Below, piece by piece: positions 415-57,700 of a DNA stretch of 64,000 bases; within the stretch, counting starts at the first letter, position 1; every line of letters begins with the position of its first letter. The stretch lies in NCBI RefSeq assembly GCF_023055435.1, contig NW_025964353.1:1550001-1614000 (forward strand). Direction: 5' to 3'. Both the position numbers and the translations under genes were made by a program. The notes beneath the pieces were generated by a model. That model did not search any database. It was not told the origin of the DNA and saw only the letters and a list, made by a program, of their open reading frames with translations. This stretch comes from Haliotis rufescens (taxonomy: Eukaryota).

Positions 415-655
415 TGTGTTTGTTTGTTTGTTGTTTAACCCCGAACTCAGCAATGTTCCAGCTATATGACGGCGGTCTGTAAATAATCGAGTCTGGGCCA
501 GACAACCCAGTGATTGATATCATGAGCATCGATCCACGCAACTGGGATACGATGACATGCATCAACCTAGTCAGCGAGCCTGACCACACGAACCCGTTAG
601 TCGCCTCTTACGACAAGCATGTGTTGCTGAAGACCTAACGCGAATCTTCACGGGT
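415..655 (-). mobile_element. SINE-like retroposon family B (non-tRNA head)
   Basis: 5' CCCGTGAAGA..., body GTCGTAAGAGGCGACTAACGGG...CCAGACTCGATTATTTACAGACCGCCGTCATATAGCTGGAA, (AAAC)n tail; TSD GCTATGTAATGT. Confidence 0.85.
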
Positions 656-1074
656 GGCTATGTAATGTATTTATGACAGTTACATTGCCAGAGTGCAATA
701 TAATCAAAGCTATGTTGTGCACATCCACACCACATTTATATATAATAGATCATAAGGCTTATATGATTAATATATAAGTGGTAAAAGCATGATTATTCAA
801 ATTTGATTAAAATATTTTTCAATAAATGCAAAATGAGGTCATTTAGGCCATTAACAGGAGACCACTGCTGTCACGTGGTTTGTCGTGATCGGTGTGACGC
901 GTTCAGTATCTGTGGGCGATGTCATCCTGTCGGACGCTGATTCCATTCCGTGTGAGATGAGACTGCTGATATAGTTGAGGAGATCCGAGGAATCACAATA
1001 GCTGACCTCTAAGCATTCCTTCAATAATTCGTGGGAATTATCAGGTTCATATATGCTGGTAAATATTAACAGTG

Positions 1075-3924: not shown

Positions 3925-4115
3925 TTGTTCGTTATTTAAACTGGCACTCAGCAATTCTCATGACCAGACAATACACTGACTGGCATCACGAGATGATCCA
4001 CGCAATTGGGATACGATGACATGTATCAACCAAGTCAGCGAGCCTGACCACCCGATCCCGTTAGTCGCCAAGTATGGGTTGCTGAAGACCTATTCTACCT
4101 CGGGTCTTCACGCGT
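3925..4115 (-). mobile_element. family B copy, internally deleted
   Basis: Shares CAAGTCAGCGAGCCTGACCACCCGATCCCGTTAGTCGCC and the GAAGACCTATTCTA head. Confidence 0.75.
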
Positions 4116-5043
4116 CGAGTTCATGTTAAACGGGGGAGAGGGCGTAGAGGAGACCGGTTGATATGTCCCAGACAAATCATAAGGAACATTTAAGGTTCTC
4201 CTAATTATGATATAGAATTTAAATGTTTCACGTCCATTTGTATTGCAGCGGAGTCTTAGTGTGCCTTCGCGATGAATTCAGATAAATACACTTACTTCCC
4301 TTAAACCACGTAAAGAGTACGTAAGCTTCGTTATGTTGATGAATGTACCATGTGCGCCGCAAACATTTGCAGTCTCTTTAACAAAAAACCTTACGAGACC
4401 CACACGTTTTCGGGGATATTGAAAGGCTACCGTGTCGTTTTGCGGTGTTGAAAATGTTAGTACTCAATATAAAAAGAAGTCATCGTTAAAGAATATACGT
4501 ATGTATCAGCAATATGTATATGTACTCCTCGTTCCAGCACTATTGAGCACAATAAACTAAGGCGGTTTCATAAAGAAACTTTTTTAAACAAGGTGTGTGT
4601 GCATTGTGAAATCGTCCACCTTCATAATTATTGATGAAATGTATCGCCTGGGGTTTGGGTACTTTTACGAGGGCAACTATCGAGGCATAACCAGTGTTTG
4701 AGAGCATGTTGCTCGTTAGGCAGCACTCGTCCATATTCCATCCAATGACCGTGGCATGTACATCTCATCTGCACCAGACAAACCAATGATCCATATTGCG
4801 AGCATCGACCGAGGCTGTTTGGGACATGAAACGTTTTGATTTAAAGTTCACACGGCAGTATTTCAGCCACCTGGGGCACCAGTGTTTAGAATCCCAAAGT
4901 AACACTACCAGGCGAGCACTAAAACTAGCTCAAATCCGTTACGCTTCGTATCATACCGCCTGACAGCGTTGATTTTATTTAACTCCAACGACCAAAAAAA
5001 AGAAAGTTAAAACAGAACAAATGGTTGTCATAATTTACGAACA

Positions 5044-7996: not shown

Positions 7997-8871
7997 CGTC
8001 TATATCTGCCCATCTACTGTGTCTTTTTGTGATATCCTTCACAAACTTAAATAAACAAGTCACGTTGCCTTGGATCACGACGATCATCCGGGTATGTCGG
8101 TCGTCATGCAGTGTTCCGGAATATAATTAGATACGAATAACCCCGAGTCATGCCGAAAGCAATCAAGGAAGTACACCATATGCACGCGGTAGTCTTCACA
8201 CTGGCTTCTCAGATAACAAGATGGCTGCTTAATTGCGCTCAATATTCTCATTAATCTGAACAAAAACCTGTGAATGTACGGAAACTATATAACAACATAT
8301 GAAGTATTAATGAATATGTCCACGAATCGTGTCTCCGTTCGCTGAGCAATAGAGCATGAATAACCATATGGTATTTCCCCGAGGCGCCATAAGCTTAAAA
8401 TAGGTCGAACCTTCTACAGCACGTGGGGATAATCGCAAGCCTTAACTACAAATACAGATTAACGACCCATGGGGATCTTAGGATAAAAGTGTATGTCGGT
8501 TTGACAAACAAAGATGTATGAATGTGGATCTATTTATAGCAAAATGTGCACAGATTATAATTATATTGAATAAAATCACACGATCCACACATTGAAATAT
8601 GTTTACATAATTGATGGTTCATAGGATTTATTTGGTATTCCCTCTTTGTTCAAATTAGTACACAAGACTATAGCTCAGTTAAAGTGAATCACTTTTGAAT
8701 ACTTCTGTTCAGTTATGAAAATAGTTCTTATGTTATATATACACATGGAACTAATATGACGTACACTCACCGTCATATAGCTGGAATATTGCCGACTATG
8801 GCGTTAAACAACAAACAAACAAACAAACACCTTGTACACTCGAGATATCTTACCGATGGAAACAAACCTGA

Positions 8872-9032
8872 GTAAGTGAGTGAGTATGGTTATACGCCGC
8901 TTTTAGCAATATTCCAGCAATATCACGGCGGAGGACACCAGCAATGGGCTTCACACATTGTACCCATGTCAGGAATCGAACCCGGGGCGTGACGAGCGAA
9001 CGCTTTAACCACTAGGCTACTCCACCACCCCC
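8872..9032 (-). mobile_element. SINE family A copy
   Basis: Reverse complement of 1075-1233; TSD GAAACAAACCTGA. Confidence 0.85.
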
Positions 9033-9232
9033 GAAACAAACCTGACATACTCAATACATAGACATGTAAGCAGAAGGGCTAAATCGGTTGGTTATTTGTG
9101 CAGTTAACACAATTAAAATACGTATTGGTCGTTAAAGTGGTGTTTAACGCCACATTACGGGTCTGGGTCAGGCATACCATTTGAAAATGAGCGCCATAAT
9201 AAAAATCGCTCTGCTCCTTAAATAGATATTAG

Positions 9233-9403
9233 AGTGAGTGAGTGAGTATGGTTTTACGCCGCTTTTAGCAATATTCCAGCAATATCACGGCGGGGGGCAC
9301 CAGAAATGGCCTTCACACATTGTACCCATGTCGGGAATCGAACCCTGGTATTCGGCGTGGCGAGGGAACGCTTTAAACATGGACTAGGCTACCCGACCGT
9401 CCC
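9233..9403 (-). mobile_element. SINE family A copy
   Basis: Same sequence; TSD GATATTAGA. Confidence 0.85.
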
Positions 9404-9812: not shown

Positions 9813-11286
9813 CCGCACACCGCTGACTATATATAGTATAAGTGCAGCTGTTATACCTCAGCATAATCAAACCTGGTGACAAATCAGTTGAAATTCTCTG
9901 ACTATACACTGACCTACAGGGAGTCCACTTACATATACATATCGTCCCTTCACGTGAATCTTGTAAACAATCAGCAGTGCTGATACAGCCGTGTAGAAAG
10001 TCCAGCTCAACAGTTGTGGGTATGTCTTTAACCCAATAACAAAGTAACCATTTATGGGTGAATACGCCTAGTTTGATGCATGTGTATCATAAAACATTCT
10101 CGAGATAACAGTCACGCCGTCTGTCCATTAATAACTAGCGTCTAGACTCACATATCACGTTTTTAGCAGGACAAGACTGCTGACACAAAACGATCCTATC
10201 AAATGCTAGGTTAACATTACAGTACTTGAGCAGATGCTGTGGTGCGATATCCATGTCGCTAGGATAACCCTGTGCGCACGGCACATTTATCGCACATTTT
10301 AGGATTCCTCTTAGGATATGTTTTAGTAAGAGTTTGAGATGAAACTGAATAATTACCTATAACTTAATAACTTCATGCGCCGCAATAAATACGAAATATA
10401 TTACCGATATATCTTTTGTTTGTTTGTTCTTTCACTGAGTGTCCAACATATGACATCTGCCTACATCTCCCACCTGTGAACTGCCTTATGAGATAATGTC
10501 GAACCCCACGGCATGAGTCGCTGTACTTAAAATATTTTGTCATGGTTTGTCTGATCCACACTCAAGACAGGCCGCCGTGATATACCATCGTATTAACATC
10601 AATGCTGCATAGTGCTGTGCATTTACCCATTAACGCAACATCGACACCATACATGCAGAACAGAACAATTACATGTAACAGGTGGGTAAGGATGAGATAT
10701 GGACGAACAACTAATTTATTACAACGAGGAGCGACAGGTCGGTGTAGGTTCTATCTCCTTATCAAGCATGCGTTACAACCTACACCGAAAAGTGGCTCTT
10801 AATTGTAATACTGACGTTTTTCATCCATAATTCATATCCTTACTTAGTACTCCAACCTCTAAATGCCCCTCAAAGAAGTTATGTACCACGTGCATATACT
10901 ACTCAAAAGAAGTTCAGGACCAGTCCATTGTTTCATATTACTATAGTTAATTTGTCATGACATACCATAACTATCGTTAATCTGTCATGTACAATATATG
11001 TACATTTCTGAATAATGCATATAGAAATGTCCTAGCGGTTGGTGTGTCTATAGAATGGTATTCAGAGCACCCTGGCCCTGATGAGGGTGTTACACGGAGA
11101 GGACTGCGGCCAATACATGAAGTGCATGGCTTGCTTACGTTTTACAAAGGAGGCTAAAAAGAAGGCTTTTCCAACCGATACGTGAGACATCAATGTGCAT
11201 GTACGTGCATGTACGTGCACACACATGTATACGTCAGGGAAAGATATATCTTGTGTGGCTGTTGGGACGTCATGTGACATGTTTAG

Positions 11287-11445
11287 TGAGTGAGTATGGT
11301 GTTACGCCGCTATTAGCAATATTCCAGCAATATCACGGCGGGAACACCAGAAATGGGCCTCACACATTGTACCAAAGGGGAACTCGAACCCGGATCTTCG
11401 ACATGACGAGCTAACCCTTTAACCACAGGGGTACCCCACCGTCCG
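11287..11445 (-). mobile_element. SINE family A copy just downstream of the TRAF6-like stop
   Basis: Same sequence; TSD CATGTTTAG. Confidence 0.85.
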
Positions 11446-11508: not shown

Positions 11509-14500
11509 TCAAATGTTAGCACTGTCTTCATCCATATCGACGGTGATGGTGTTAGTCCCTGCGTCGGCAACGTCGTCGTCCGACGTAGTTGAAACAGAAT
11601 CATTGTTGGACTCGCCTCGGAGTCTTTGAATATGTCGACGTTGGACCTTCATGATGACTTCCTGTCTCACGGCCAGACTGAAACATCGAGATAAACATAC
11701 ACTGAATGAGTGAGTGAGTGAGTTGGGTTTAAGGCCGCTTTGAATAATATTCCCGTTATATCGCGGCGTGTCAGCTTAATGTGGGAGGAAAGCCCGAAGT
11801 GATGCAGACCACTTCGGTGAAACCCACGAGAACGGGTCTGGTGCCGACAAACCTAGAAACATAATCGGGGCGAACCGGGAGTCGAACCCATTATCCACGT
11901 TTCTGGAGTCGTAAGGGGCTTCCGAATAAATTAACTTTCGATATAAATAATCGAACCTTGAGTTCGATGTGACGAGCGAAACCTTTAACCACTACCCCAC
12001 CGCCTCATAAAATTGACAATTGGGTGTGCACTCACCCTTTGAGATCTTCCACGTCGTTAGTGAGGGACTCGACTGTGATCCGGAACTTCTGCATCTCAGA
12101 CCGCAGATGGAGCTCGTTTTCGGCCATCAGGGCCAGGTGTTGCTGCCAGTAATCTTTGTTATGTTTCTCAAGGTTCTGGCGCTTTTCCTTAAAGAAAGAC
12201 CCCGTCTAACCAATAACATTTATCTCAGAAGAATAAAATACAAATGCCAAAGTTAGATTCCACGTGCCATTATTGAATCTTTTTTGTGTTGCCATTATTC
12301 TGTAGAATACTCAGATGAGCGAACGACCATGAGGCGATGACACCGTTATGCATTACTGCCCTCGGGCGTCGGGCAATCGTATTCTTTACCTGTTCTTAAC
12401 TATTCTTTGCTTTGTCTGAGCATTTCTTACATAAGGATTACCGCGACTGTTTACTGAAAACAAGATCTGTAAAATGAAACTTCCGCCTTGCAAAACAAGG
12501 CCCGCTTCTATTGACGTGAATCCGCGCACCTGCAGCTCTCCGTTTTCCTTCTTGTGACATACCTCAGCCTTGCACCCTAGTCTGTGGAAAGTGCATCTGA
12601 CCTCCACCAGAGGGCAGTCCTGCTCGATGTGATCCGGGATGTTCTTCCGGAGAATGCCCACAGCTCCACACACCGTGCACGTGACCGGGAACTTCTCACA
12701 CTCCAGTAGGTGGTGCATCTGTGCAGAACGTCAGGGCAAAATTAACGTGGGGTTTAGTTTTGCAGTAAAGTACTTTTCAGACACATTCACAGGTTATGTC
12801 AATGTATTTACAGGGATGTGAGCAGGTTGATGCCCCCCATAATTTTTTTAAACATTTGATTGCATTTTAAGCAATTTCGTGCAGTTTGGACAACATTCAC
12901 TCCAAGAAATGTAATAAGTCAATGTCAAATAAACAAAGATGACGGATGCAGTAAAATGTCGAAGTTAAATCAGTACTTTTTAAAAAATCGGGCATAGCTT
13001 CCTCGCAACAGGCTATCCGCCGGGTCTGGGAGCAATACGGCCATAAACTGCACCGCCGCGTCTTCACTTCGTGTCTGAACCAGACAATCCAGTGATTAAT
13101 ATCATAAGCATCGACCTACTTAACTGGCATGCGATGACATGCATCAACCAAGTCAGCAAGCCTGACCACCTGACCCCGTTAGTCGCCTCTTACGACAAGC
13201 ACGGGTTGCTGAAGACCAATTGTAACCCGGAACTTCACGGGTGGAATGTCTTAACTAAGCAGCAAGGACTTCTGAAGAAACGCCGGCATAAAGGTAACTT
13301 ACTGGTCTGTCCGCCAATGCCAACGTTATGTGGCAGTGGTCACACGCGACGGGCCTTCTCCTGCAGGAGGCCATGTGGGCCACCGCTTCCCCGCGTGTCA
13401 CCGTCAGCCCACAGTTGTACTCGCATGGCAGGGGGGCCATCTGACAGGCATCCTTGTGATCCTGGGGGACAAACAACTTGTTGGTGTTTGAGTCACATCA
13501 AGTACATCTTCCCGAGGCAAGAGGGTTAACTGACTATAAAAGAGGAAACTGGACTTTTATAGTCAGTTAAAGCCCTTGTCTCGAGAAGATGCAAGAGGTA
13601 CTAGTCAAAGCATAAGCGTTAGTCAAGATAAACCACAGACATGTATAAAAAATAGGAAGCATAGATCCTATCCTTTATTATATTAATTTTAACAAAAATT
13701 CTCCTTGTCACTGTTATATTATGAATGGTTTACTTGTTAAAAGCTAGTAGTGGAGTAGGCTGTGTGTTCATATTGGCACGAAGGAGAAAATATTATTTAT
13801 AGCAGTTAGCAATATTCCACGGCCTGTAACCAGTGATGTATAGCATGACAACTGTCAGCGCCTTTGTTACACGATGACAAACAGTCTAGCCATACATTGA
13901 GATTGTCGTCGCCAACAGCAGGCACAGGTTGAAGAAGATCAACTGGAATTAGAGCCCCGCCCGGTTAATATTGTGAAGGGGTTTTATAAGTCAGGTAAAT
14001 TTTGTTTGTTGCTTAACGCCGCAGTCGGCAATATTCCAGCTGTATGAGGGCTGTCTGTAAATAACATTCGTCACCACTCGCCCCTTTCCGTAATCCACAA
14101 GATGACTCATCCTCCTATCGATGAATGCTATGTTCGAAAATACGACAAACTAATCAGAATGCGCGTTGACTTGAAGTACTTCGGTCAAAGAATCCATCAG
14201 AAATAATTTTTGAGTTTACATGTCTTGCATTAACAATAAACCCAAGATATAGTTAAATGTGTTCAATCAAACTGTATAATACTGTAAGACCCGATGTGTT
14301 TGAATTAGAATCTGTATGATATATGGGGTGAATATACGTGAATCATTTCGCAACGAGGTGACAATTCTTTCAGCTATGCACATTTGCTCTTAGACGGAGC
14401 TCACGTGTCGCTATTCGGATTGTCCCGGAACACACGAGATGGTCACGAATGTGTAAATACATGTAATACACAATTGGGGATATGATGACGTACATTAACG

Positions 14501-17500
14501 AAGTCAGAGAGGCTTACCAACCGACTCCATTTGTCGCCTCGTACAAGCATGGATTACTGAAGACCAATTCTAACCCGGATCTTCACGTGTTTTTGAAATC
14601 AAGTCTTTGACTGGCATTTTATTACAATAACTTAGAAAAATACACGAAACCTTTATACTTGTTTGTAACAACGTTTGGAGGCGACATATATTATGCTGAT
14701 AAGTGTCCATCCGACGTTGATTTGTACTCACTCCCACCATACTGAAATGTCCAAGTGTACGTACAGGAAAGACGTGGTGTTTAAGGGGGTCACTACCAGC
14801 TGGATGGTCTCCCTTGGACTAGCTGCAGACTAATGGGGCATGGCCGCGTTCACTTACCTGGAGTTCCCGGAGCTCCCCCTTCCACTGGCATCGGTCATCA
14901 CCTTTGTTGTGGTCGCATTTGACGGTCAAGGACAGGACTTCACGTCTGGTGGCGTTGTCGGGAAACACCTGACGGAAACGACGATGTCGACATACGAATC
15001 ATGCATATATATGTTGTTAACGATCAAACGCATGCCAGATCGGGTTCGCTTTTAAAAGACATTTTTCTTCAAAGCAAATTACGGATGAAGTCTCTCCTTA
15101 AACTAGGTCTCTTGGGGTGACAATGATAATTAACAGCGAAACAGGGAGTGGGTGATTAAAGACGTAGACAGCATTGCAGATGTCACAACGGCCTGTAAAT
15201 GAGTTTACCAATTAACCAATGTTTAAAACAAAGGACAATTATCCACACACTTAGGGCACGACAACACGCCTTTTATCACCCAATTTTAGTCGGCTTTTAA
15301 AAATATCATTGGTTTAGGGGGAAATACTCTTACCCAGAATCTCCATGGTGTTTTGTTCTAATTACTAGCAGGAGGACGTATTGGTCACAATGTCGGTATC
15401 AATAAATTAAACAAGGCAAATTGAAAATTGCCAAGGAAAAGGAGTTGATAGGTTTCGCAAGTTCCGAAAGAGTTGCAGCTACCCGTAGAGCTATGGGTAA
15501 AATATGCGCTCACAATACATGCAAATGACACAGTAACATGGACGCAAAGGGTGAAATTGTCTGAATATGTGTATATCTTACCTCTCCCCGTACTCTGAAC
15601 CATCTGTTGTCCACGGGACACTTGGCACAGGTTCTTGCTCTGTGAATGTTTGGAAGACAGAAACATTAACTTTACACGGGGCACACAGATACGATCATTG
15701 ATCACGGTTACTACACAGTTATTGGCGGTGACCTGCACAGAAGGTATACGGTAAACGTTTCGTAATAACTATATATAGCAGTGATGGAGTAGTACCTTAA
15801 TGAGAGGTTGAGGTTACTTCCGCCAGACATTGAGACCACGGGAGCATACCTAGCAATATATGGAAATTAGCGAGTGATTTGCCTTCATACAGTTGATATC
15901 ACAATAACTCTGTATAAAACGTAAACATTCCACCATCGCACCTTGAAATCAGCGGAAAGGTATGGAAAGGCTTATTCCTGATAACGTGGTAGTTATTTAA
16001 GAAAATTACGTATCTGCACAGGTAAGTAAATGCAGGTGTTAAAGTTTTGTTTGTTTGTTTGTTGTTTAAAGCCGCATTCAGCAATATTCCTGCTACGTGA
16101 CGGCGGTCTGTAAACCAGACAATCCAGTGATTGACAGCATGAGCATCGATCCACGCAATTGGGATACGATGACATGCATCATCAACCAAGTCAGCGAGCC
16201 TGACCATCTGATCCCGTTAGTCGCCTCTTACGACAAGCATAGTCGCCATTTACGGCAAGCAGAGGTTGCTGAAGACCTTCACGGGTCAAGTGTTAAAGTG
16301 AAGAATATCATATCTACATAAAGACCAGTATGCCTTAATGTTGTATAACCTGTTGTGATCATAAATAACCGCTCGGTAATTACCATATATCTTGCAAGGT
16401 ATACCTTTCCTCGGTCAGATACTGGGGTCTCGGGGAGATATACGATCTCAGTGAGAGGGAATCTCCGTGGATAATCAATATAGGAATATTTCGTAACTCA
16501 CTTAATGACGCCTTTCAGACACTCTTCGCAAAATCTGTGTCCGCAAGAAGTCTGAACCGCTTCCCGCAGGACCGCCAGACAGATTGGGCACTGGTACTTC
16601 CGGTCTACTTCGGGGTCAAAATCGTGGTCAAACCCGTGGATCTCCTGAATACTCACTTCCTCGACGCTCATCCTGTCTGGACGAAGGACATCATTTCCAT
16701 TACATTACATTTCGGGTAGAGCACATGTTTTATACCACAGTCAGCAACGATTACGACTAAGTGTCCCATGAGTCAAAATTGGGGCAGACCGGTGCTTGAA
16801 AGCATGATGAACAACAATCAACAGTCATAGTACGATGAAACACAATCAGATAGTTCACACATTATTACCACCCGATCTTACTGTAAGTATTCCGCCAAAA
16901 ACACTATTCCAATATCAAGGCCGCTGAGGCATCCTGCATGGAGTATTGAATGATATACTTATTCTGTCCTTGAGCCCGCTCCACAAAACGATCGCAGCGT
17001 TTAGCTGTCGTAAGTCTGTTAAAGTATGGGAGTTACGATCGTCTTAGCACTACGATCGCTTTGTGGAACAGGGTCCTGGAATCTTAACGGGTTACATACA
17101 GAAAAACTTTTTGTAACAGGCGACTATGCTTGTCCTACAAAAACGGATGAAACTTGAAAACGGATTTTCTATAAAATCAAAACGCCACTCGGCTGAAAAC
17201 AGACGCCGAAACACTGCAAACTTAATTTTACCGTCGAATAACTATTTCTTGTTTGTTTCATTTTTAGCAAGGGGCGAAATGTAACTACTCCCTATTTACG
17301 CCGAAGACCGTGTTCGATTCCCTACATGGGTACAATATATGAAGCACCCATTTCTGGTGTCCCCCGCTTTTAGCAATATCACGGTAGAAATGGGCTTCAC
17401 ACATTGTACCTATGTCGGGAATCAAACCCTGGTCTTAAGCGTGACGAGCGAACGCTTTAACCACCAGGCTACCAGACCACCCCGTCTCTGTGACGACCAG

Positions 17501-19597: not shown

Positions 19598-19827
19598 TTT
19601 TGTTCTTGTTTGTTGTTTAGCGCTGCACTCAGCAATATTCCAGCTATATGACAGCGATCCACTCTGGATCAGACAATCCAGTGATTGATATTATGAGCAT
19701 AGATTTAATCAACTGAGATACAATGACATGAATCCAAGTCAGCAAGCCTGACCACCGGATCCTGTTTGTCACCTCTTAGGGCAAGCATGGGTTGCTGAAG
19801 ACCTATTCTACCCTGGATCTTCACAGT
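19598..19827 (-). mobile_element. family B copy
   Basis: Same body and head. Confidence 0.8.
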
Positions 19828-20695
19828 GAACTGTCTCCATTGATACTAAACCTTCTAAACCGACAACTAAAGATATTGCTATGTGAACTGGTTGATTGAC
19901 TGCAATCCTACCCAAATTCTGTTGATTGTGGTTCATGCTATCATCCAATTTTCTGCCTCCTGAACTTGACTTAATAACTTACATGCAATGATATTGTTCA
20001 GATTACAAGATCATAACTTGATGAACAAGTCTTATGATAAGTGTATAAATAAGAGAAGAGAAATGCCATTATAAGTTATATGCTATTGTGTGTTTGTCCT
20101 GCCAGATAATGAACAAGAATTCTTTATGATTTTTACCATTAATCTGCACAATATTGAATGAAATTCAACTTTTACCCAAAACCTTATGCCATCACAACTA
20201 TGGCTGAAGAAATCCTCATAAATGTAGGTAAGCACAAGACCAAGAAGTACATATTTGGGATATTTATTTTATTCTGTTTTTCATCCAACAGACCAATATA
20301 AATCAAGATATCACAGACTTTGGTATATAAAAATAGAAAACCTAGTAAAGTGTACATAAACACATGGAAATATCTGGAAGGATTTGAAGATGACTTTCAA
20401 TCTGTCTTATGTCGGAAAATAAAATTTGTATCAGTTCACAGCAACAGAAATAATCTTTCCACTGCACATGTATATTTTCTGAGATTGAAGACACAGGTTA
20501 CTTATGTATATGGAAAGTTTGTATGTGTATAGACAATTTTTTTATCACAATCCAGTTAAAAGAAAAACTCCAGATTGCATCATTTTCAAGACTTAGTAAT
20601 TTTTCACAACACTGAAACAAACAGATATATGAATACATGTAATACTGACATTGTAACTTGGGTATACAATCACACTGAACCAAATCAGCCAACTA

Positions 20696-25900: not shown

Positions 25901-28900
25901 AACAGTCACAAGACTACAGATATAGATATGTGACAGTATGCATTGCTGATCAGTTGCAATCTGAACTGGATCAAACAAGCCAGAGGTCTGAGGACAGTCC
26001 TAGAAGAGTTATCTCCCTTGTTCCATTGCAGCCAGCCACATGCGAGCATTTGAAGAGTAAAGTGCTGCTTACACACTAAATGGCCAGACCAGACATGTAC
26101 TGCTTCACTCACTTGGGATGTCTGAGAGCTTGTAGACAGCGAGAGTGTTTTCCCAAGGCACTCCATGCCAAGGCATAGCCATCCTTACTGCCTGTGATAA
26201 TATGCCAGCGGTCAAACTTGATGGCTGTCACTGGGCCCTGGTGGCCTGATAATCTCTGGGATAAAAAAAAGTACACTTCAGTTCATATTTTCTTGGGTTG
26301 AATTTGAACACCAAGATAGATTTGGCCACCTGCTGCTAGGATCTGCTGGATCATAGTGAGCTTAATTTCCAGATCTCATCCAGTTATTTTCCTTGATGCT
26401 TGGCACCCTACCTGTGCTTATAAGTTTCACGAAATTGAGAAACAGCGAGTTTATTCATGAATAAATTTTTAATGTGAAGATTACTTGATACATTGTGTAT
26501 ACAGCTTTTCCATTGGACAAAAGGTTGGTCATATGACCCCCAAATTGACATTCATAAGTGGTATGAACGACACAAATTGAAGTTCATAAGTTTTTCACAA
26601 GAAAAATTCTTCAATTGACGTAAACACTGACAGATAACTTACACATTCCTGGGGGAACTACTGGAAATTCCCAAGCACGAATACATATACAGAAGAATTG
26701 TTTCTGATCATTTAGACCCTTTAATCTTGAACTCAGTGTTTTAGCATACTCAGAGTTTGACTGCATGATTGTTTATGAATGTCCTCGCTACGACCCATCC
26801 TGGTGAACAAAACATAGAAATACACATCTTAAGTTTACTATTGTAGTATCGACTCGATCGGTGTGTAGACTGACAATGACAAGTACCTTAGTATCTATTT
26901 GACACATCTTTATAATCACCTTTCAATTACTGGCCAATTGACCAATGATGACTAACATATGTAACCGCCACAGGTTCATTAACAACTTCGGAAATCTCTC
27001 CCGTCATGTTCATCTTGTTGGCCATTTTGACGTCTTATACTTGATGTTTTTTGGTATGGTTTGTTGTTTAACACCACACTCAGCAATATTCCAGCTATAT
27101 GACGGCGGTCTGTAAATAATGGAGTCTGGACCGGACAATCCAGTGATTAATATCATGAGCATTGATCCACGCAATTGGGATCGATGACATGCATCAACCA
27201 AGTCAGCGAGCCTGACCACCCGATCCCGTTAGTCGCCTTTTACGACAAGCATAGTCATCTTTTACGGCAAGCATGGGTTGCTGAAGACCTATTCTATCCC
27301 GGAATCTTCACGGGGTTTATACTTGATGTAAACGTATTACAATGCGCTGTCATTATGACAGACTTACTGAGGTAGTTCTTAACAGACATTTCTCACCCAA
27401 TGATGATATTATGTGAATACATTTGTTGTAAACAAACAACAACATTTTCCTGTAAAGCATGTTGAGCATACATACGCTCATGTCACCTCTCTTTTTGAGG
27501 AACTTTTTTTTCGCAATACAGCTGGTTGTTGTTTAGCTGTCGGTGTAAACATGAAGTCACACATGCTAAATTAAATTGTGTATAGATCTAGGCGTACATC
27601 CTTCGAGCTAAAAAATGTGATACCAAAAATTATTAGAATTGACTTTCAATTTGTGTGAGCTCACTGGAGTATGAACCTTCATATAGTAAGGGCCAAACAT
27701 TGTATGAACAACGTAGCCACAAGTCTGTACCCCAAGTCTAGTAAAATGTCATTTGGTCAAGTAAGCTTTGTTAATAATGGTCAATATATTAACGCTAAAG
27801 ATCTACAGAAAATGATATCAAGAGACACGTTCAGGCTTGTAGACACACAAGTTATGGGCACAGATTGTAATGAAACACATTTGCCCACATCTTAATTAGG
27901 AAATATACACACCATCAACATCTGGTTTAGAATTGGCCTTCAACTATCCATGCTTGTCAACAGAGGCAACTAAAGAGATCAGGTGGTCAGGCTGGCTGAC
28001 TTGGTTAATGCATGTCAAACAACCAATTGACTATCATGATATCAATCACTGGATTGTCTAGCCCAGACTTGACTATTTACAGACTGACTTCATATAGCTG
28101 GAATATTGCTGGGTAGGCGTTAAACAACAAACAAGAAACTATACACTGGACCAACATCAGCACGATGCTTCTACTTCTACTACAATAATACACTGCAGCT
28201 TCAATTCTCAAGCTGGTATAGCTTCTCACCTTAATGAGTTCCCCTGACTCGACATTCCACACTTTAACTCTGCCTGACTCACACCCTGAGATACAACGAT
28301 CCTTAGACAGCGCTACAGCTAGAACAGGGTGGCGGTGGCGGAAGGTTCGCAAACATTTTCCTGTCTGTAGGTTCCATACTGAAAGGAACAGATTTTTAAA
28401 CACATTACACATTATCTTCTTGATTCTTGATTCATTACATAAAAATACTATCATGTTCTCCGAAAAATATATGATATAAGGTAAGATTTAGGTGTGAAGT
28501 GGTAAGAAAATAACATGTTGATTTATAAACCTTTAAGTTGGTATAGCAAATATTGGGATTTATTATTTGAGATATTTTGAAAATAATCCTTAACCTGAGC
28601 TTTAGAGTTTCAGTTATTAAGTCTATTAAGTAATTATATTTAATACCAGTGTGAAAATTCATTAATTCGATCATTTTCAAAGTTGAAATTGAATGAAAGT
28701 GGATTAAGAGGTATGGCTGACAGGGTGGCCCAAGATTTCTTTCATTGTAATCCCCCAAATATTGTATGAGATGATGTGCAAATTAATTATGTTAGGAATT
28801 GTTTTGAATCTGTTATTTCAGATTCAAAAATGATTTTGGTCATTTTATTACTCATTCTAATACTGACCCTTGCAGGAGGAATCTTTGGACCCCGTTGCTA

Positions 28901-31900
28901 GAGTCTCTCCATGTACAATAATTGTCACAACAGTGTCTCGGTGACCTCGGAATATCTTTAGACACTGCCCAGTTTCAATAGACCAGCACCTGAAAACAAA
29001 AGCTACTTCAGCAAAACAAAACACTAATTAAAAGAACCGTATTCATCTTATTTAAAAATCCATCCATCTTGGCTACAAGTATTTTAGGAAAGCTATTGTA
29101 ATATTGGAAAAGTAATATTGTTCATGGAAATTATGTAAAACATAATTTTTAAAGTACTCCGTTCTGACTAGAGATGGTGTGCACAAGAAACTAGCACATA
29201 TTAAGTTGATTGATCATTTTGGCGGGAGTGAGGTTATTGGGTATCAATCAATATATTATACTGAAATAAATTATTGATAATGGCAGCGCATAATGAATGT
29301 GACTGCAATCCATCATAAATACAGAGCAATGGCAAAGAGACACGTAATGATTAAGCCCTTCAACAAAACCTGCTATATGAGATTTATATATTGTACTTTC
29401 TGGAAAACACCCATTTCTGAATTTATCTAACTCTCCATAATTTTTCAACAGTGAACTCTTGAAAATGCCCAATACTTAGATTTTGATCAATGAGAATTAT
29501 GCTCAAGTCCATGTCAAACTGAATTCAAGTCTGTCCTGCATAAAATGGTTGAACAAAACAATTTTCATGTTTTTAATAAAAATAACCAATTGTGGATGAA
29601 TAGCTTATTGGATTGATTCAGAAACCTATTTATCGTGAACCCGTGAAGATATGGGGTTAGAATAGGTCTTCAGCAACCCTATTATACTTGCTGCAAAAGG
29701 TGACTATGCTTATCGGAAGAGACAACAATTGGGATTGGGTGGTCAGACTCGCTGACTTGGTAGATGCTTCTCATCGTATCCCAATTGAGTGGATTGATGC
29801 TCATAATATCAATCACTGGATCGTCTGGGCCAGACTCGATTATTTATAGACTGCCGTCATAGAGCTAACTGAACTGACATTATATGACTATAAAACTATA
29901 CTAAAGTGTAAAGATCTGAAAACATTGTTGTGGTAAGACTCCACAGTTCCACAAGGCACAACTCACTACATCTCTACTACCTACCTGACACTGGTGTCGT
30001 AGCTTCCACTCAGCACGATGCCCTTCTTCTCACAGAGGTAGGTACAACGGACGGATCCAGCATGACCTGTGATCACTGGCCCCTTCTCTTTCCCAGACTC
30101 ACAGTCAATGAAGCGAACCTTGCGGTCCTTGGACCCCAGGGCTATTGTCTGTCCTCCATCAGTGTGCATCACTCGGTGGATGTCCTCCCTGAAGGAACGA
30201 ACCATGGCATCATTAAACAAGGTTCATGTCCTATAGATCTCAGGTAGAGGGGAAACAAGACACATCATGATACTTCATGCCATGATAGCGGAAAAGCTGT
30301 GTCAAAACAAAATGTTACAAGTATATATTAGGGTGACCTAAAAAATTATATAAAAATGAAATGTAAAATACTCATTTTGAGAATTTACAAAAGATCTCAA
30401 TCCATTGTCATGTTTAACTTAACATGTTTCTTCGGGGCATCTATTTATTCCCCTTAATGACTAAATACTGCTACTTAACATAACAAGTGTCAGGACATTC
30501 CTCACCAAGTATGACAGACATGCATCGTATCGTGACAGTCTATATAACTACAGCCCTACGTATTGGTCGCCTAGTTCTTTAACAGCAGAGCTGTCTATGT
30601 ACACATAACCGTAAGTGACAAGCACCTTGTCCAGGAAAACACCAGTTATGTGGCTAATGGGGTGATTAAACATGCTAATGCTGTAGCTGTCAACCAAAAG
30701 CCCTGAAATAACTCAGATTAGATCTGATGTGGAGAAAATGTTCAAAGTTCACCCTAAACTTACTTCCTTCAACAATAACTATACCAAAGGAGTTATATGA
30801 GATATATATCACCCCATGTTACGGAAATATGTTTTGACCCTTGCAAAACTAGACCCTGATAATGAGTAACCTACTGGTCGCAGATCACCATGACGTTGTA
30901 GGCTCCACAGTAGACATTCCTCTCCTCCATGATGACCTTCATGGTGGCCAGGCCGCTGTACGCGGTGTTGAAGTTGATCTCACTCTTGAACATCGTCTTG
31001 ATGACAGCACCATCAGTGAGGATGACATCGTTGGTGTCGGTGTCAATCCGGGGAACTATCACATCCACATCATTGGCATAGACGGAGTTCACGCCTTGTG
31101 CTGCTGCTCCCTGAAAACAGGAGGACACTCAGAAATACCTCAGGGCTGAACCAGCGGCCTGATGGCAAAGATAGCTATAACCACACACTAGCCAAGCCAT
31201 ATTTGATCAAATATCTACTTACTGTCAAAATAAGCTACAACTCAGTATTGTTTACATATTACATGATTTCTTCTTTTTCCTAAATGTGCTGCACTGGGTT
31301 ACAATACCACAGGGGCACGGGTGGCCCAGTCGTCTAAGGCGCCGCGATTCGCTGTGCAGAGTTGCGTCCCTTGGGCACGCTAGAAACCTATGATTGTGGG
31401 TTCGAATCCTTGTTCGCCCTGATTATGTTTCTAGGTTGTCAGCACCATACCCATGCTTGTGGGTTTCACCGAAGTGGTAAACGTCCGAGACCTGCATCAC
31501 TTCGGGCTTTCCTCCCACATTAAGCTTACACGCCGCGATATAACTGGAATACTGTTAAAAGCGTCGTTAAACCCAACTCACTCACTCACTACAATACCAC
31601 AACATCAAGTCAACTTATCTGCAGTTCTTTTCAGACTAGTGGTTTATATAACCTAATTTGAGTTGGGGGGAAAGCATCAAGTCCTTTTCACTAGTCTCTA
31701 ACCTTACTCCACTGACCACTACTGTGTGGCAAGTAGGGCCATAATGACTCATGGTTACGGTGAATCGAACTGTATCCATTCAGGAACTGAATTCGTTATT
31801 CGTGGCCACTAGAATTGAATATTTATGAATATGCAATCATGTGCATTCACATACCCTGTACCTAAAAACATCCATTAGAACATATGATATGCATAGATTT

Positions 31901-51700: not shown

Positions 51701-54700
51701 ACAGGTCTGTTGGTGAACTGGGTGCCGTTGTACAAAGCGGTCTTAGCGCTAACTCCCATACCGTCACATAGACTTATGAGAGTCTTAGCACTAAGGTTGT
51801 TTTGTACAATGGCACCCTGGTGCCTTTTGAAGGTTTGGGAGTTTTGGAATTTTTTTTTGAGTTTGCATGGCAACAACTTTGACTTAGACTGAAAATGGTG
51901 GTAATGCTCATTTCTGGAGCAGATCTTGAAAACCATACGCTATATTTTCTCCAAGCTTGGTACATTGATAGTACAGTGGTGAACTAGTGCCTTTCTTATG
52001 TTTTGGGATTTTTGAAAAAAAAATTTTTTCCAACTTTAACTTAGATTGAAACTATAATAGTGAAAGCTAAAAATACTACAGAAATACACTCATCCAAAAT
52101 ATTTTTAACCAAATTGGAATCCCAGATTAGTTAAAAGTATTTTGGATGAGTTTATAGTTGTAATTGAATAAAACTTTAAAATCACATTGCTGTGATGGCA
52201 AGGATTGAAATGTAAGAACCACGGATAAATTACAAAAGTGTTTACAAAAATGCAAAGAAGTAACATTTATTTAGCTTTGTTTACTTTGTCATACATCATC
52301 ACAAACACTCCAAAACATGTAATGCTTGAGTGGAACAATCTTGAGTCAACAACAGCTCATGATAATACTCTGTACTCCAAACAATTATTTGTAAAAAAAA
52401 TTGACATTGCACACTTACACACACACATACACACTACATCTGTCTGTAAGAAGTCACAGCATTATACCCATGGAGATCTGGGCTAGCATTGTTCTTCTAG
52501 TAAGAACTGACTAATAGGATCGGTGACTTGGTTGATGCATGTCATCGTATATCAGTTGTGTACATCGATGCTCATAATGTTAATCACTGTCTGGTCCAGA
52601 CCCGATTATTTACAGACTGCCATTTTATAGCTGGAATATTGCTGAACGCAGCTTTAAACAACAAAGAAACAAACACAGCATTATAGTGCAGCAACCCTGC
52701 TTTTGATTCCAGCGTTACTACTACTACATCAACAAAGGTATCCGTAGAGAGATGCTGGCACCCCAGTCTCACACCCAGGTTAAGAATATCCAGCGCCTTG
52801 TCCCCTCTCATCTCATCTCCAGTTGGGAACATGAGACCCTCAACCAGTTGCTGCTGCAGGAGATAGATACAGGCTATGAGATGAGCATCAGGAAGTCAAT
52901 AGGTGGGAGGAGAACTTATCTTACAGCTCATCGTGTGATTCATGTCAATCCTTATGCTTAGGATGTGTTTCATTGTCAAGATAGATAGCCATGCAAGAAC
53001 CACAGAATGATTCCTCCTACTCCTGTACACACTTGATGGTAAAGCTAGATTCTTGCATGACATATGCAGGTGGATCAATATATTTGAACACATCAACATC
53101 TCAGAAGAATTAATGTTAACTTCTGCTTTTTTCCATAAAATTCTCAATATTTACCTGCATATTATTCATCAACTATATAAAAATGGAAACTTCACTTCGC
53201 TCGAAGGATACTTTTACATAGGTAGATTGTGTGAAGCAAGTGTGTAATATATTCCCTGCAACGGTTTCCATATTTATGTCCATTAGTATATTAGCTGTGT
53301 TCATCATGCAGATTTGCTGCACATACAGTTAATGTTCAGTGTGGTAGGTTATCATGATGGCGGTGTTGTGTTACAGTTGACTACGTCCTGAAGGACCAAG
53401 ATGAGAGAGACAGACTACACATCGCCTGGACACCCAAACCCTTCCCCCTGAGGTAAACATGATGCCACCTGCTAATGCAAGCCTAAATACATTATAATAA
53501 TTAATAATTCTCATGTTCTATGGAAAAGATGCAAGATGCATGACTGATCAACACTGTGATGTTTCTGGGTTTCTTAAAGTATGGGAGTTATGATCACCTA
53601 AGGGCTATGGTCGCTTTGTGGAACAGGACCCAGTTCCCTAGCATTCCGTGCTGGTCGTAAGATGTGTCGAAATGGATTATGTGGTCAGCCTTAGGAGTTT
53701 ATTGATTGTTTGTCATCATACCCCGATGGCGTGGATCGTTGCTCACAATATCAATCACTGGATTGTCTGGTCCAGACTCAATTATTTCCAGGTCACTGTC
53801 ATATAGGAATATTGCTGATTGCAGCGTTACACAACACACACATGGCTGATCAGCAGTCTTTATTCCAACTCCATAGAGATTTGGGATTGTACAAAATTTA
53901 CTGTAACAATTTGAGTCATAGCATAATTGTGCTTGTGTTTAGAGTTTGGTTCATCCTGATAATTTGCTATTTGTGACATTGTTATGTCAGGTGTTGACAG
54001 TATGTTGCCGTTGTGTTCATGCCTGGTCAAGCTGTACAGATAGTTGGATCCTTGAGATGGAGGTCTGAGCTGTGATTGTGTTGCAGGTTGATACGAGCGC
54101 CCGTCCCCTGGCATCAGTCGTACCACCAGGCCCATAACTTCAACCTCAACCACCTCTTCATCACCAACTCCATCATGCATGACCTGCAGAACATCTGGTT
54201 TGACCAGTAAGTAGAGCATCTTTCAGTAAAAACGGGCCAGTGGGATCGCCAAGTGGTTAAAGCGTTCGCTCGTCACGCCAAAAGCCCAGGTTCGATTCCC
54301 GACATGGGTACATTGTGTGAAGCTCATTTCTGGTGTCCCCCGCCATGATAATGCTGGAATATTGCTAAAAGCANNNNNNNNNNNNNNNNNNNNNNNNNNN
54401 NNNNNNNNNNNNNNNNNNNNNNNNNNNNNNNNNNNNNNNNNNNNNNNNNNNNNNNNNNNNNNNNNNNNNNNNNNNNNNNNNNNNNNNNNNNNNNNNNNNN
54501 NNNNNNNNNNNNNNNNNNNNNNNNNNNNNNNNNNNNNNNNNNNNNNNNNNNNNNNNNNNNNNNNNTTACTTCTTGGATGTTTTCTAAGGTTCAGCCATCT
54601 GCGGTTCATCAACTTGAAGGAACTGTTGGCGTCCGACCTGCCCCTGTTGCCTGCTGAGTTTGAATCTCTGGTCAAGAAACAATGCTGGGATGCTCATGAA

Positions 54701-57700
54701 GTTCTCAGGAAGAGGTGAGGATTTCGGGACCTTTGTACAGATGCAATCTTTCAACAATTCATGTTAGATAAAGCAAGGGTCATCTTGGTATTTCAGACCA
54801 GCAGAATGGCTGCAGTGCAGTGTTAAATCTCTCTTTTATCTATTGGCTGTTTCAGCTGGATTCCAACATGTGCAAAGGTGTTCTTTGAGAAGACGGACCT
54901 ATGGCAGGATCTGGTTCCCCCCAATGACACAGACTCCACTGAGATGATCCAGGAGTTCTTCCGCTGTGTCGCTGCCGTCATGTCTATCCACCTCCGCAGC
55001 ATGGTCATCAACTCACTTGCAGACTTCCTGGAGTTCTTCCAGATACACAAGGTCTGGATTGTTGGCAGCTACAAAGTTGACCCTGCTAAGACATATAATT
55101 ATCTAGGGGGAACATTGGTGGCCAAGTTGTCTAAGGCGCCAGAATTCCCTGTGCAGGGTTGTGTCCCTTAGCCATGGATCGATGATCATGATGTCAATCA
55201 CTGGATTGTCTGGTCCAGACTCGATTATTTACAGACCGCCGTCATGTAGCTGGAATATTGCTGAGTGCGGGGTTAAACAACAATAAAAGAAATAAAAGGA
55301 AAAGATATCCCAATGACCACCTGGTGTCTGTTATGCAGTGTGTATAGATGAGTTCCCCATGACCACCTGGTGTCTGTTATGCAGTGTGTGTTGATGAGTT
55401 CCCCATGACCACCTGGAGTCTGTTATGCAATGTGTGTTGACGAGTTCCTCATGACCACCAGGTGTCTGTTATGCAGTGTGTATAGATGAGTTCCCCATGA
55501 CCACCTGGTGTCTGTTCACCTGGTGTCTGTTCACCTGGTGTCTGTTATGCAATGTGTGTTGATGAATTCCCCATGACCACCAGGTGTCTGTTATGCAATG
55601 TGTGTTGATGAGTTCCCCATGACCACCTGGTGTCTGTTATGCAATGTGTGTTGATGAGTTCCCCATGACGACCTGGTGTCTGTTATGCAATGTGTGTTGA
55701 TGAGTTCCCCATGACCACCTGGTGTCTGTTATGCAGTGTGTGTCGATGAGTTCCCCATGACCACCTGGTGTCTGTTATGCAGTGTGTGTTGATGAGTTCC
55801 CCATGACCACCTGGTGTCTGTTATGCAATGTGTGTTGATGAGTTCCCCATGACCACCAGGTGTCTGTTATGCAGTGTGTGTTGATGAGTTCCCCATGACC
55901 ACCAGGTGTCTGTTATGCAGTGTGTGTTGATGAGTTCCCCATGACCACCTGGTGTCTTTTATGCAATGTGTGTTGATGAGTTCCCCATGACCACCTGTTG
56001 CCTGTTATGCAATGTGTGTTGATGAGTTCCCCATGACCACCTGGTGTCTGTTATGCAGTGTGTGTTGATGAGTTCCCCATGACCACCTGGTGTCTGTTAT
56101 GCAATGTGTGTTGATGAGTTCCCCATGACCACCTGGTGTCTGTTATGCAATGTGTGTTGATGAGTTCCCCATGACCACCTGGTGCCTGTTATGCAATGTG
56201 TGTTGATGAGTTCCCCATGACCACCTGGTGTCTGTTCTGCAGTGTGTGTTGATGAGTTCCCCATGACCACCTGGTGTCTGTTATGTGCATGATCTGTGTG
56301 CTAGGTGGGCAACGACTTCGGTGAGGAGTTTGACGAGCTGCAGTACGTCATGCCGCAGATCATGATCATCAAGTTGAGGGTGGAGGACCCAAAGATTGTG
56401 TTTGACCCGCCCTTCAGGGAGATCAGAGACATCATTCTGAAGTGTTTCTCCGAGATCATTGCCAGTGGAGAGGGACTATCAAGGGTATGGGTTATATCTT
56501 AAAACAATGAAAAGTGTCTGCTGTTATTTTGATGTTTTGTAAAATGTATCTGTGTTGTGTAAGTCCGATGTTCCAGCAGTGTAAAGTGTGGAATCTCATC
56601 CTGAAGTTGCTTGAAATCAGGTCCTCTCAAATTGTAGCAGAAGGCTGATATTTAGGAGAGTTAAATGCCATGTTAATTCTAACATTATTGACCTGCTTTG
56701 AGTTTTAATAAGAGACAATTTCAGCAACATATAACGCTATTCCTGGCTGCAGGTTGAAACGGAACTGTTCCCTGATATGAGAGGACAGCGCCTACTCTTG
56801 AGGTCAGTGAAAATCGAGGAGACACTGTTCACAGACTACGTTGATAAGGCCATGGAGATCTTCAAGGATAACACAGTGGGACCACAGAAGTAAGTGTGCT
56901 TTCTACTTTAGCTCACCTGGCCCCTGTTCCACAAAGTGCAACGACTTTCGTAAGTCAATGTTAAAGTATGGGAGTTACGGTCATCATAGCACTGTGACCG
57001 CTTTGTGGAATGGGGCCTGGGGCCATAAACACCAGACTGAGCTTACATCTCACCTTCAGCACCACATATATATGCTTTCTGACTCATAGCATTGATTCAC
57101 CTGATTTAGGAGTAAGCATATACTCTGAAGCGTTGTGTTCTTCATAATAAAGAAGTTGACATGCATAAATTCTCTTCCTTGATGTACCAGTTGTTATTTA
57201 TGGTCTACTTTATTGCAGATACTTGAACATCTACAAGAAATATTCAGACCTGCTCAACAACAAAGCTGATCAAGATGTGTCTACCTTCCTCCGAGAAAAA
57301 CATTCCATACAAGCTTTCAAGAAGGTAGGAAAACTTTTTTTATGTTCTTCAGCACTGCTAGTTATCACTCAAACAGTAATTATTATTGTTATAATTCTTA
57401 AAATATTTTTTTTACTGTAATCCAGTTATATGACAATGGCCTGTTAATATTGATTGTGGCCCAGACAAACTAGTGATTGATATTGTGAGCAGCAATCCAC
57501 AGACCCAGGTTCGATTCCCCACATGGGTAAATTGTGTGAAGCCCATTTTTGGTATCCCACACCATGATAATGCTGGAATATTTCTAAAACCAAACTCACT
57601 CACTATTAATAATAATAATGACCTTTTTTGACAGAAAATCACAGGTTACCAGGATCTGAAGGATGAGATTGCTCTGCTGCGAATCACTGTCCCGCTCAGC

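Follow-up and report, generated by a model that had tools for sequence, protein, structure and literature searches.

A predicted pseudoknotted RNA shared by the 5' ends of abalone LP-SINEs and Nimb-type LINEs: a candidate exoribonuclease-resistant RNA

SINE copies in the window

The window, which is the whole stretch of DNA analysed (64,000 nt of Haliotis rufescens contig NW_025964353.1), holds eight copies of a SINE with a conserved 5' head. All eight had been named in the preliminary description, and they were the top eight window matches (E 3.5e-16 to 4.6e-7, the ninth having 0.0017) of a covariance model whose training loci all came from outside the window; BLAST agreed on the copies. The features are listed below, with the strands of helices P1 to P4 given according to the predicted fold.

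27048..27316, minus strand: full SINE copy of LP-SINE type, duplicated-P4 subfamily, 269 nt (BLAST and target-site duplication boundaries)
27317..27329, minus strand: 5' target-site duplication (TSD), 13 bp
27035..27047, minus strand: 3' TSD, 13 bp
27311..27316, minus strand: P1 5' strand, the extreme 5' end of the element, then a 1-nt linker (U at 27310)
27303..27309, minus strand: P2 5' strand, with 7/7 pairs compensatory
27296..27301, minus strand: P1 3' strand, with one mismatch in the duplicated-P4 subfamily
27290..27295, minus strand: conserved linker AGAAUA, predicted to cross P1
27283..27289, minus strand: P2 3' strand, closing the predicted H-type pseudoknot
27273..27277, minus strand: P3 5' strand
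27254..27268, minus strand: first, degenerate copy of the P4 hairpin (22-nt duplication)
27232..27246, minus strand: hairpin P4 (GUCG, 7-nt loop, CGAC), loop predicted to be T-loop-like
27225..27229, minus strand: P3 3' strand
27099..27224, minus strand: SINE body, without match to the three LINEs compared
27048..27098, minus strand: SINE tail, common to the 3' end of Nimb-type LINEs (89% over 38 nt against L254), plus A/C-rich repeats
586..657, minus strand: head of another copy, internal deletion, 12-bp TSD (covariance model)
4050..4117, minus strand: head of another copy, P4 partly deleted (covariance model)
13168..13244, minus strand: head of another copy, single P4, best model score (covariance model)
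14520..14592, minus strand: head of another, older copy (covariance model)
16206..16288, minus strand: head of another copy, pseudoknot partly deleted, 10-bp TSD (covariance model)
19754..19830, minus strand: head of another copy (covariance model)
29637..29718, plus strand: head of another copy, degenerate, duplicated P4 (covariance model)

Exact TSDs were found at three of the eight copies (near 654, 16285 and 27314), consistent with the earlier statement that several copies carry them. The GTCG/CGAC hairpin, said to be duplicated in some copies, was present twice in the 27314 copy, at 27268-27254 and 27246-27232. The reported lack of a tRNA head was confirmed: an exact B-box occurred in 0/8 window copies, ARAGORN detected no tRNA in loci L001 and L005, and Rfam gave no match on the head. 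The tRNA head with A and B boxes that marks tRNA-derived SINEs (SINE2) was thus not seen. Genome-wide (assembly G000), an exact 21-mer of the head occurred 41,747 times, and the reversed control 0 times.

Head fragments were also amplified as 44-nt and 51-nt tandem arrays elsewhere in the genome (G000:C1:4063389-4063717 and 4569976-4570652). A second SINE family with a related Nimb-like tail and a CTCA-repeat end lies in the window at 1074-1242, 8870-9031, 9227-9402, 11283-11444, 17298-17483, 54240-54373 and 57501-57612, and self-BLAST offsets revealed tandem-repeat arrays at 55308-56285 and 61946-64000, with periods of ~92 and ~53 nt.

The 5' end of the SINE

The copies had been described as beginning at about the same point, and this held genome-wide: 46 genomic copies were random upstream of position -2 and constant from G-A-CCCG onward, with G as the first base in 34 of the 46. 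A TSD was detected in 21 of 49 genomic copies and ended 2 nt before CCCG in 16 of these 21. The 5' ends fall at P1 or 1 nt before it, and a conserved leader is absent. Small-RNA reads gave no usable RNA 5' ends; they consisted mainly of antisense piles of ~30 nt. These antisense small RNAs were piRNA-like and covered the LINE head at L250:375-405 (one run) and the SINE body at L005:1672-1702 (mainly one of three runs).

Identity of the element and its LINE partner

LP-SINEs, Haliotis families included, have a head of ~70 bp that is common to the 5' ends of Nimb-17_LMi, I-3_DR and RTE-9_CPB (PMC4758252). The element studied here resembles them in being short and TSD-flanked with a LINE-derived head of ~70 bp, the Haliotis member Hmi_LP being 255 bp long (PMC4758252). 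Scallop 'Nimb-17 homology' rows in the same source have AGAAT, CGTAAGAGGCGACTAA and GGGATC in common with the abalone head, and by eye their P2 sequence is different yet complementary. The head showed homology (72-76% over ~63 nt against L250 and L254) with the initial ~70 bp of Nimb LINE 5' UTRs and was not derived from a small RNA, and the element had variable TSDs and a 3' tandem-repeat tail, as LP-SINEs do.

Thirty LINE loci were retrieved from G000 via the Nimb-type ORF1 protein and not via the head motif. The head was present upstream of ORF1 in 30/30 of them, at a distance of 520-673 nt in 29 and of 1436 nt in one. ORF2 of two full elements (L250 and L251) contained APE, RT and RNase H domains by Pfam, and a zinc knuckle in LINE ORF1 was represented by a weak zf-CCHC match in L175 (E 0.004). 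Head and tail, and not the body, were common to the SINE and the Nimb-type LINEs; because of this pattern the SINE, judged from its sequence, is an LP-SINE that probably depends on Nimb. The clade name follows from the architecture and PMC4758252.

The element class and the head sequence are therefore already published. The suggestion that the motif was possibly uncharacterised does not hold for the sequence, which is the 5' domain of LP-SINEs and Nimb-17; as a structured RNA it has no Rfam entry. In its account of LP-SINEs, PMC4758252 gives neither a structure, nor a viral occurrence, nor a partner LINE.

Other head-bearing elements were encountered. A two-ORF LINE with the head lies inside a bacterial symbiont assembly (L378:6900-12600 in G005:C4, the same as L175), where a GC drop and an N gap follow the element and host DNA in the assembly is likely. 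In a metagenome repeat family (L052, L087, L094, L106, L111) the head is followed by an A-box-like sequence in which ARAGORN detected no tRNA, an arrangement that recalls scallop SINEs with the head before a tRNA-derived region. An element of ~170 nt with a long-stem head variant at its start and TTAA on both sides was seen in three unrelated records (L097, L167, L177).

Predicted fold of the head

A search with two motifs separated by a free gap returned 8 viral, at least 122 metagenome and 20 GTDB stretches, with at least 153 matches overall. From these matches and the loci of the own genome, 17 families were picked by eye, one sequence each, trimmed in register with P2 and then aligned on sequence alone. 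P2 was 94% paired, with compensatory changes at 7/7 pairs; P1, formed by the 5' CCCG and the CGGG directly after the first P2 strand, was 82% paired, with compensatory changes at 3/5 pairs. Controls with a slid partner were only 32-53% paired, and the covariation score was equalled in 0/500 shuffles. These data support a predicted order of P1a, U, P2a, P1b, AGAAU and P2b, which would form an H-type pseudoknot, followed by a variable P3 capped by P4. The preliminary description had proposed cross-family covariation and an Rfam search as checks of the motif; P1 and P2 covaried, and Rfam returned no relevant match on the head.

Across 28 families the mean best length of P3 was 4.93, against 4.11 +/- 0.22 with swapped partners, and 0/1000 swaps reached that length. 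In three virus records (L032, L033, L035), P3 was weak or missing. As read from the sequences, it is variable but real. The P4 sequence was invariant across families, most of its letters being preset in the search patterns, and covariation is mute on this hairpin because it never varies. However, U1, A2, A5, G6 and G7 of its loop were kept in 30/30 LINE loci retrieved via the protein, and the hairpin, proposed earlier as GTCG/CGAC, was counted as supported. We take the heptaloop to fit the T-loop consensus. The AGAAU linker was likewise preset in most patterns, yet it was also present in the protein-retrieved LINE loci. The invariant unpaired bases were AGAAU, a G four nt before P4, the P4 loop and UAA. 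A minimum-free-energy fold of the whole element, a method blind to pseudoknots, gave z -1.7.

The topology first proposed was rejected. Its GAAGAYC/GGTCTTC helix is P2 and was borne out by covariation, but its outer helix of 5' CCCGT with 3' ACGGG was only 52% paired across families, and its loop pseudoknot GGGTT/AACCC 41-73%. Instead, the 5' CCCG pairs with the CGGG after the first P2 strand, and the second CCC(A/G)T is the partner of ACGGG. Duplex energies were compared as well, because the linkers vary and thereby obscure the outer helix's register: the P1 plus P3 pairing was favoured in 25 of 26 families and the earlier one in 0, with 10 of the 26 parses mis-registered (4 badly, 6 by one base). 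The idea of a structured pseudoknotted RNA as the 5' end of the element thus stood as a motif that lacks an Rfam match, with two of the proposed helices mis-paired.

The motif in viruses, phage and bacteria

In six RNA-virus-like records, the motif lay at distances of 5, 10, 23, 73, 100 and 198 nt behind the last stop codon, with 82-184 nt between it and the contig end. Matches to Pfam RdRP_3, RdRP_4, Peptidase_A21, Capsid-VNN or Viral_coat were found in 5/6 of these records, and none in L031. L031 had a second, shortened copy of the motif in tandem, and L204 an additional P4-like hairpin upstream. A 212-kb AT-rich DNA-virus record, perhaps of an insect iridovirus by its length, carried the motif between two ORFs. 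In this record (L033:1480-1556) the motif forms a GC-richer island, with a kinase-like ORF downstream (by eye; no Pfam match). Since the motif is present in the UTRs of RNA viruses, it probably acts as RNA.

One phage carried the motif between genes in two records. This phage motif (L375:352-428 in G001, the same as L359 and L351) lies in a hairpin-rich intergenic region of a 76-kb record and is a single case. A strict structural descriptor was compared with shuffled sequence, the anchors being retained and the flanks shuffled for 3000 rounds. It was matched or beaten by 3 (phage), 8, 9, 78, 113 (L031) and 540 (L033) shuffles per 3000, and it did not parse L035 and L204, so that the descriptor was weak or non-significant in four of the eight viral instances. 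Allowing for ~21 chance candidates, the phage instance has p ~0.02 and is a tentative one. The phage motif lies ~6 kb upstream of the anchor gene, and five related phage loci, which cover 2.2-4.3 kb upstream of that gene, showed no motif within this span. No relatives of the phage or DNA-virus instance were found in the annotated phage collection, and the majority of matches from looser viral scans were by chance.

In bacteria, the loose pattern was found in 2/401 genomes, namely the seed and one chance-like match, and the 400 genomes besides the seed thus gave no convincing instance. The structured matches in GTDB assemblies (L163, L167, L168, L170, L174, L175, L177) came for the most part from short contigs, the ends of contigs, simple-repeat DNA or the inside of a LINE, and were read as eukaryotic contamination.

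An HDV-like module in front of the head

Four of the 30 protein-retrieved LINE loci started directly at P1, and 26 were preceded by a 59-nt module (complete in 24, partial in 1 and truncated by the end of the locus in 1). The module had an HDV-like strand order and matched RF02682 with E 0.007, every pair of the model being formed and the score lying below the gathering score. In a young Nimb-type LINE family (L250:312-368 in G000:C13 and most of L221-L248 and L275-L304), this candidate minimal HDV-like ribozyme makes up the 5' end. Copies led by it were often nested in LINE copies of the same type and densely clustered (L223, L225, L226, L237, L239, L246, L247 and G000:C445:31.1-32.1 Mb).

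HDV-led copies started at G1 of the module, indicating that insertion records the RNA 5' end faithfully. When 30 HDV-led copies were collected with a query running from P1 through the downstream UTR (some overlapping the 30 protein-retrieved loci), the start lay at G1 in 28 and inside the module in 2, with none at P1, and the copies not starting at P1 included ones with canonical P4-UAAA. A compensatory change in P2 was present between module-bearing subfamilies. The 0/30 starts at P1 argue against cleavage or initiation there, and together with the P2 covariation they suggest that the head is kept as a fold where the RNA is neither cut nor started at P1. Either event at P1 would have stripped the HDV module. 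Xrn1 would not have done so, because it requires a 5' monophosphate and a 5'-OH end is a poor substrate for it.

Three other explanations of the head were considered. One is a self-cleaving ribozyme of undescribed class whose cut would fall immediately 5' of P1, in the manner of the HDV-like ribozymes in R2, RTE and Ingi; it would account for 5' ends exactly at P1, as HDV-led ends fall at G1. Many invariant unpaired bases suggest a catalytic core. Occurrence in RNA viruses, in a phage and at the 5' ends of LINEs and SINEs is a usual distribution for small ribozymes, and these are indeed present in the UTRs of linear RNA viruses (PMC13725137). However, none of the 30 HDV-led copies started at P1, no Rfam ribozyme matched, and an efficient cut where a viral 3' UTR begins would part the genome from its 3' end. 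We consider cleavage by the head unlikely; of the two options offered in the preliminary description, a ribozyme or a structured head, the second was borne out and the first was disfavoured by the 0/30 starts.

A second reading, an internal promoter for RNA polymerase II in which the RNA fold is an additional trait, would agree with the 5' position of the head and with the role suggested for it in PMC4758252, where the Pr77 ribozyme, a promoter and ribozyme in one, is cited as an analogy. Its main point is that the G-A start is compatible with a cap-derived G. Nevertheless, the compensatory changes and the presence in RNA-virus UTRs point to selection at the RNA level, the HDV-led copies do not start at P1, and the HDV-less LINE family started with U in 4/4 cases. 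A promoter as the primary function is improbable on this evidence.

Thirdly, a conserved host factor, be it the ribosome, an initiation factor or an RNP, could bind the head and thereby aid uncapped RNAs. The head might then act in viral 3' UTRs and HDV-cleaved LINE RNAs as an enhancer of cap-independent translation, and give the SINE an Alu-like route to the LINE protein. The invariance of the P4 sequence across animals and viruses fits such a site, as does the fact that the head, with its covariation, is kept downstream of an HDV ribozyme, on an RNA that would be uncapped; 3' UTR translation enhancers are also common in tombus-like viruses. Nevertheless, a host factor leaves the exact P1 start of HDV-less LINEs and SINEs unexplained by itself, and the probable phage instance fits a eukaryotic factor poorly, which makes this a rather unlikely account of the head.

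Proposed function of the head

A block to 5'-3' exoribonucleases would meet three needs at once: action at the RNA level, 5' ends at P1 in SINEs and HDV-less LINEs, and sparing of the upstream HDV module. We therefore propose the head as a candidate exoribonuclease-resistant RNA (xrRNA) of an undescribed type, a proposal that we hold, from this analysis, to have an even chance of being right. Slightly below that stands the wider proposal that a new xrRNA class is common to retrotransposons of animals, to viruses with ssRNA or dsRNA genomes, to a large DNA virus and to a phage, and that the host decay machinery trims out the 5' end of SINEs and LINEs that lack a promoter. SINE copies, which have no Pol III promoter, would be transcribed within longer host transcripts. 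Once such a transcript is decapped or cut, Xrn1 or Xrn2 would digest it in the 5'-to-3' direction until halted at the P1 base, so that the remaining RNA would have a defined 5' end, and the Nimb LINE proteins would recognise the common tail and reverse-transcribe the SINE RNA. The T-loop-like heptaloop of P4 might dock on the AGAAU linker and lock a ring round the 5' end, like the T-loop and AG motif of class 3 xrRNAs. In viruses, the same fold would yield noncoding subgenomic RNAs.

Known xrRNAs are typically found in 3' UTRs, often in tandem, and block RNase J1 too (PMC8374639), and class 3 xrRNAs stop Xrn1 at the P1 base (PMC12397905). The genomic 5' ends at P1 are compatible with such a stall. 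Several observations count against the xrRNA reading. The fold is without the defining parts of every known xrRNA class. LINEs capped by an HDV fold with a 5'-OH end still keep the head, which leaves the need for an xrRNA there unexplained. The G-A start of the SINE also fits a capped transcript that begins at A, with a cap-templated G. Finally, P3 is weak in three virus records and the descriptor in four of the eight viral instances, and the families were picked by eye, with the register set via P2.

LP-SINEs were an odd case as SINEs without a small-RNA head, and in 2016 no explanation was given for why the 70-bp domain is conserved between Nimb and RTE LINEs. The present gain is a covariation-supported fold for this domain and its occurrence in RNA-virus 3' UTRs, which make its function testable. 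No description of the fold in retrotransposons, the viral occurrence or the tandem with an HDV ribozyme was found in the literature, subscription journals, Repbase and Dfam lying outside the scope of that search, and 13-mers of the motif were in no paper of the searched literature. In a 2021 review, xrRNAs were characterised in viruses only, and whether eukaryotic genomes hold them was posed as a question (PMC8374639). If the xrRNA reading is true, that question would be answered by an xrRNA encoded in cellular genomes, with >40,000 copies in this one, and retroelements would have a third way to set their 5' end, besides internal promoters and ribozymes. If the head cleaves instead, it would be a new ribozyme class. 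The HDV-like module in the Nimb-type LINE would itself add to the six ribozyme-bearing clades listed in PMC5786205, a list in which Nimb does not appear.

Comparison with known RNA classes

The view that the topology is not that of HDV, hammerhead, twister or pistol was upheld, the strand order being unlike HDV and such Rfam matches being absent. Rfam includes models for hammerhead, twister, twister-sister, pistol and hatchet, and none of these matched the head. A hammerhead on the antisense strand was considered and rejected; CUGAAGA is present there, but the GAAA after the stem is missing. The HDV-like ribozymes of R1, R2, R4, RTE, Ingi as well as LOA are likewise compact pseudoknotted RNAs, located precisely at the 5' end of LINEs and of non-autonomous elements derived from them (PMC5786205). 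The head differs from them in strand order and has neither the nested double pseudoknot (P1-P2-P3-P1.1-P4) nor the catalytic C in J4/2; the Rfam HDV models match the separate module upstream of it in the main Nimb-type family instead.

Class 1 and 2 xrRNAs are marked by a three-way junction with a double pseudoknot, which was not found in the head, whose 5' domain is predicted as an H-type pseudoknot. Coremin xrRNAs, which occur in 3' UTRs of ssRNA and dsRNA viruses, share with the head a small hairpin with a GUC...GAC stem, followed by a spacer that contains UAAA (PMC10520033). However, Coremin has a YGAD or YGNNAD loop on its 5'-most hairpin, then the spacer and a second hairpin (PMC10520033), whereas in the head P4 lies 3' of the pseudoknot and has a UANRAGG loop, so that both loop and order differ.

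Class 3 xrRNAs, known from Solemoviridae and Tombusviridae, resemble the head in outline. Their stacked P2, J1/2 bulge, L2B T-loop in the apical loop and AGY motif were not seen in the alignment; the head instead carries its T-loop-like hairpin downstream, on P3/P4, and has AGAAU in place of AGY as its linker. Because the T-loop of class 3 is placed elsewhere, we regard the likeness as resemblance and not membership. It consists in a 5' P1 whose loop forms a pseudoknot with sequence further 3', which the head has as well, together with an AG motif in the linker between P1 and pseudoknot, a T-loop, an Xrn1 stop at the P1 base, which is a class 3 feature, and a common position in 3' UTRs or intergenic regions (PMC12397905).
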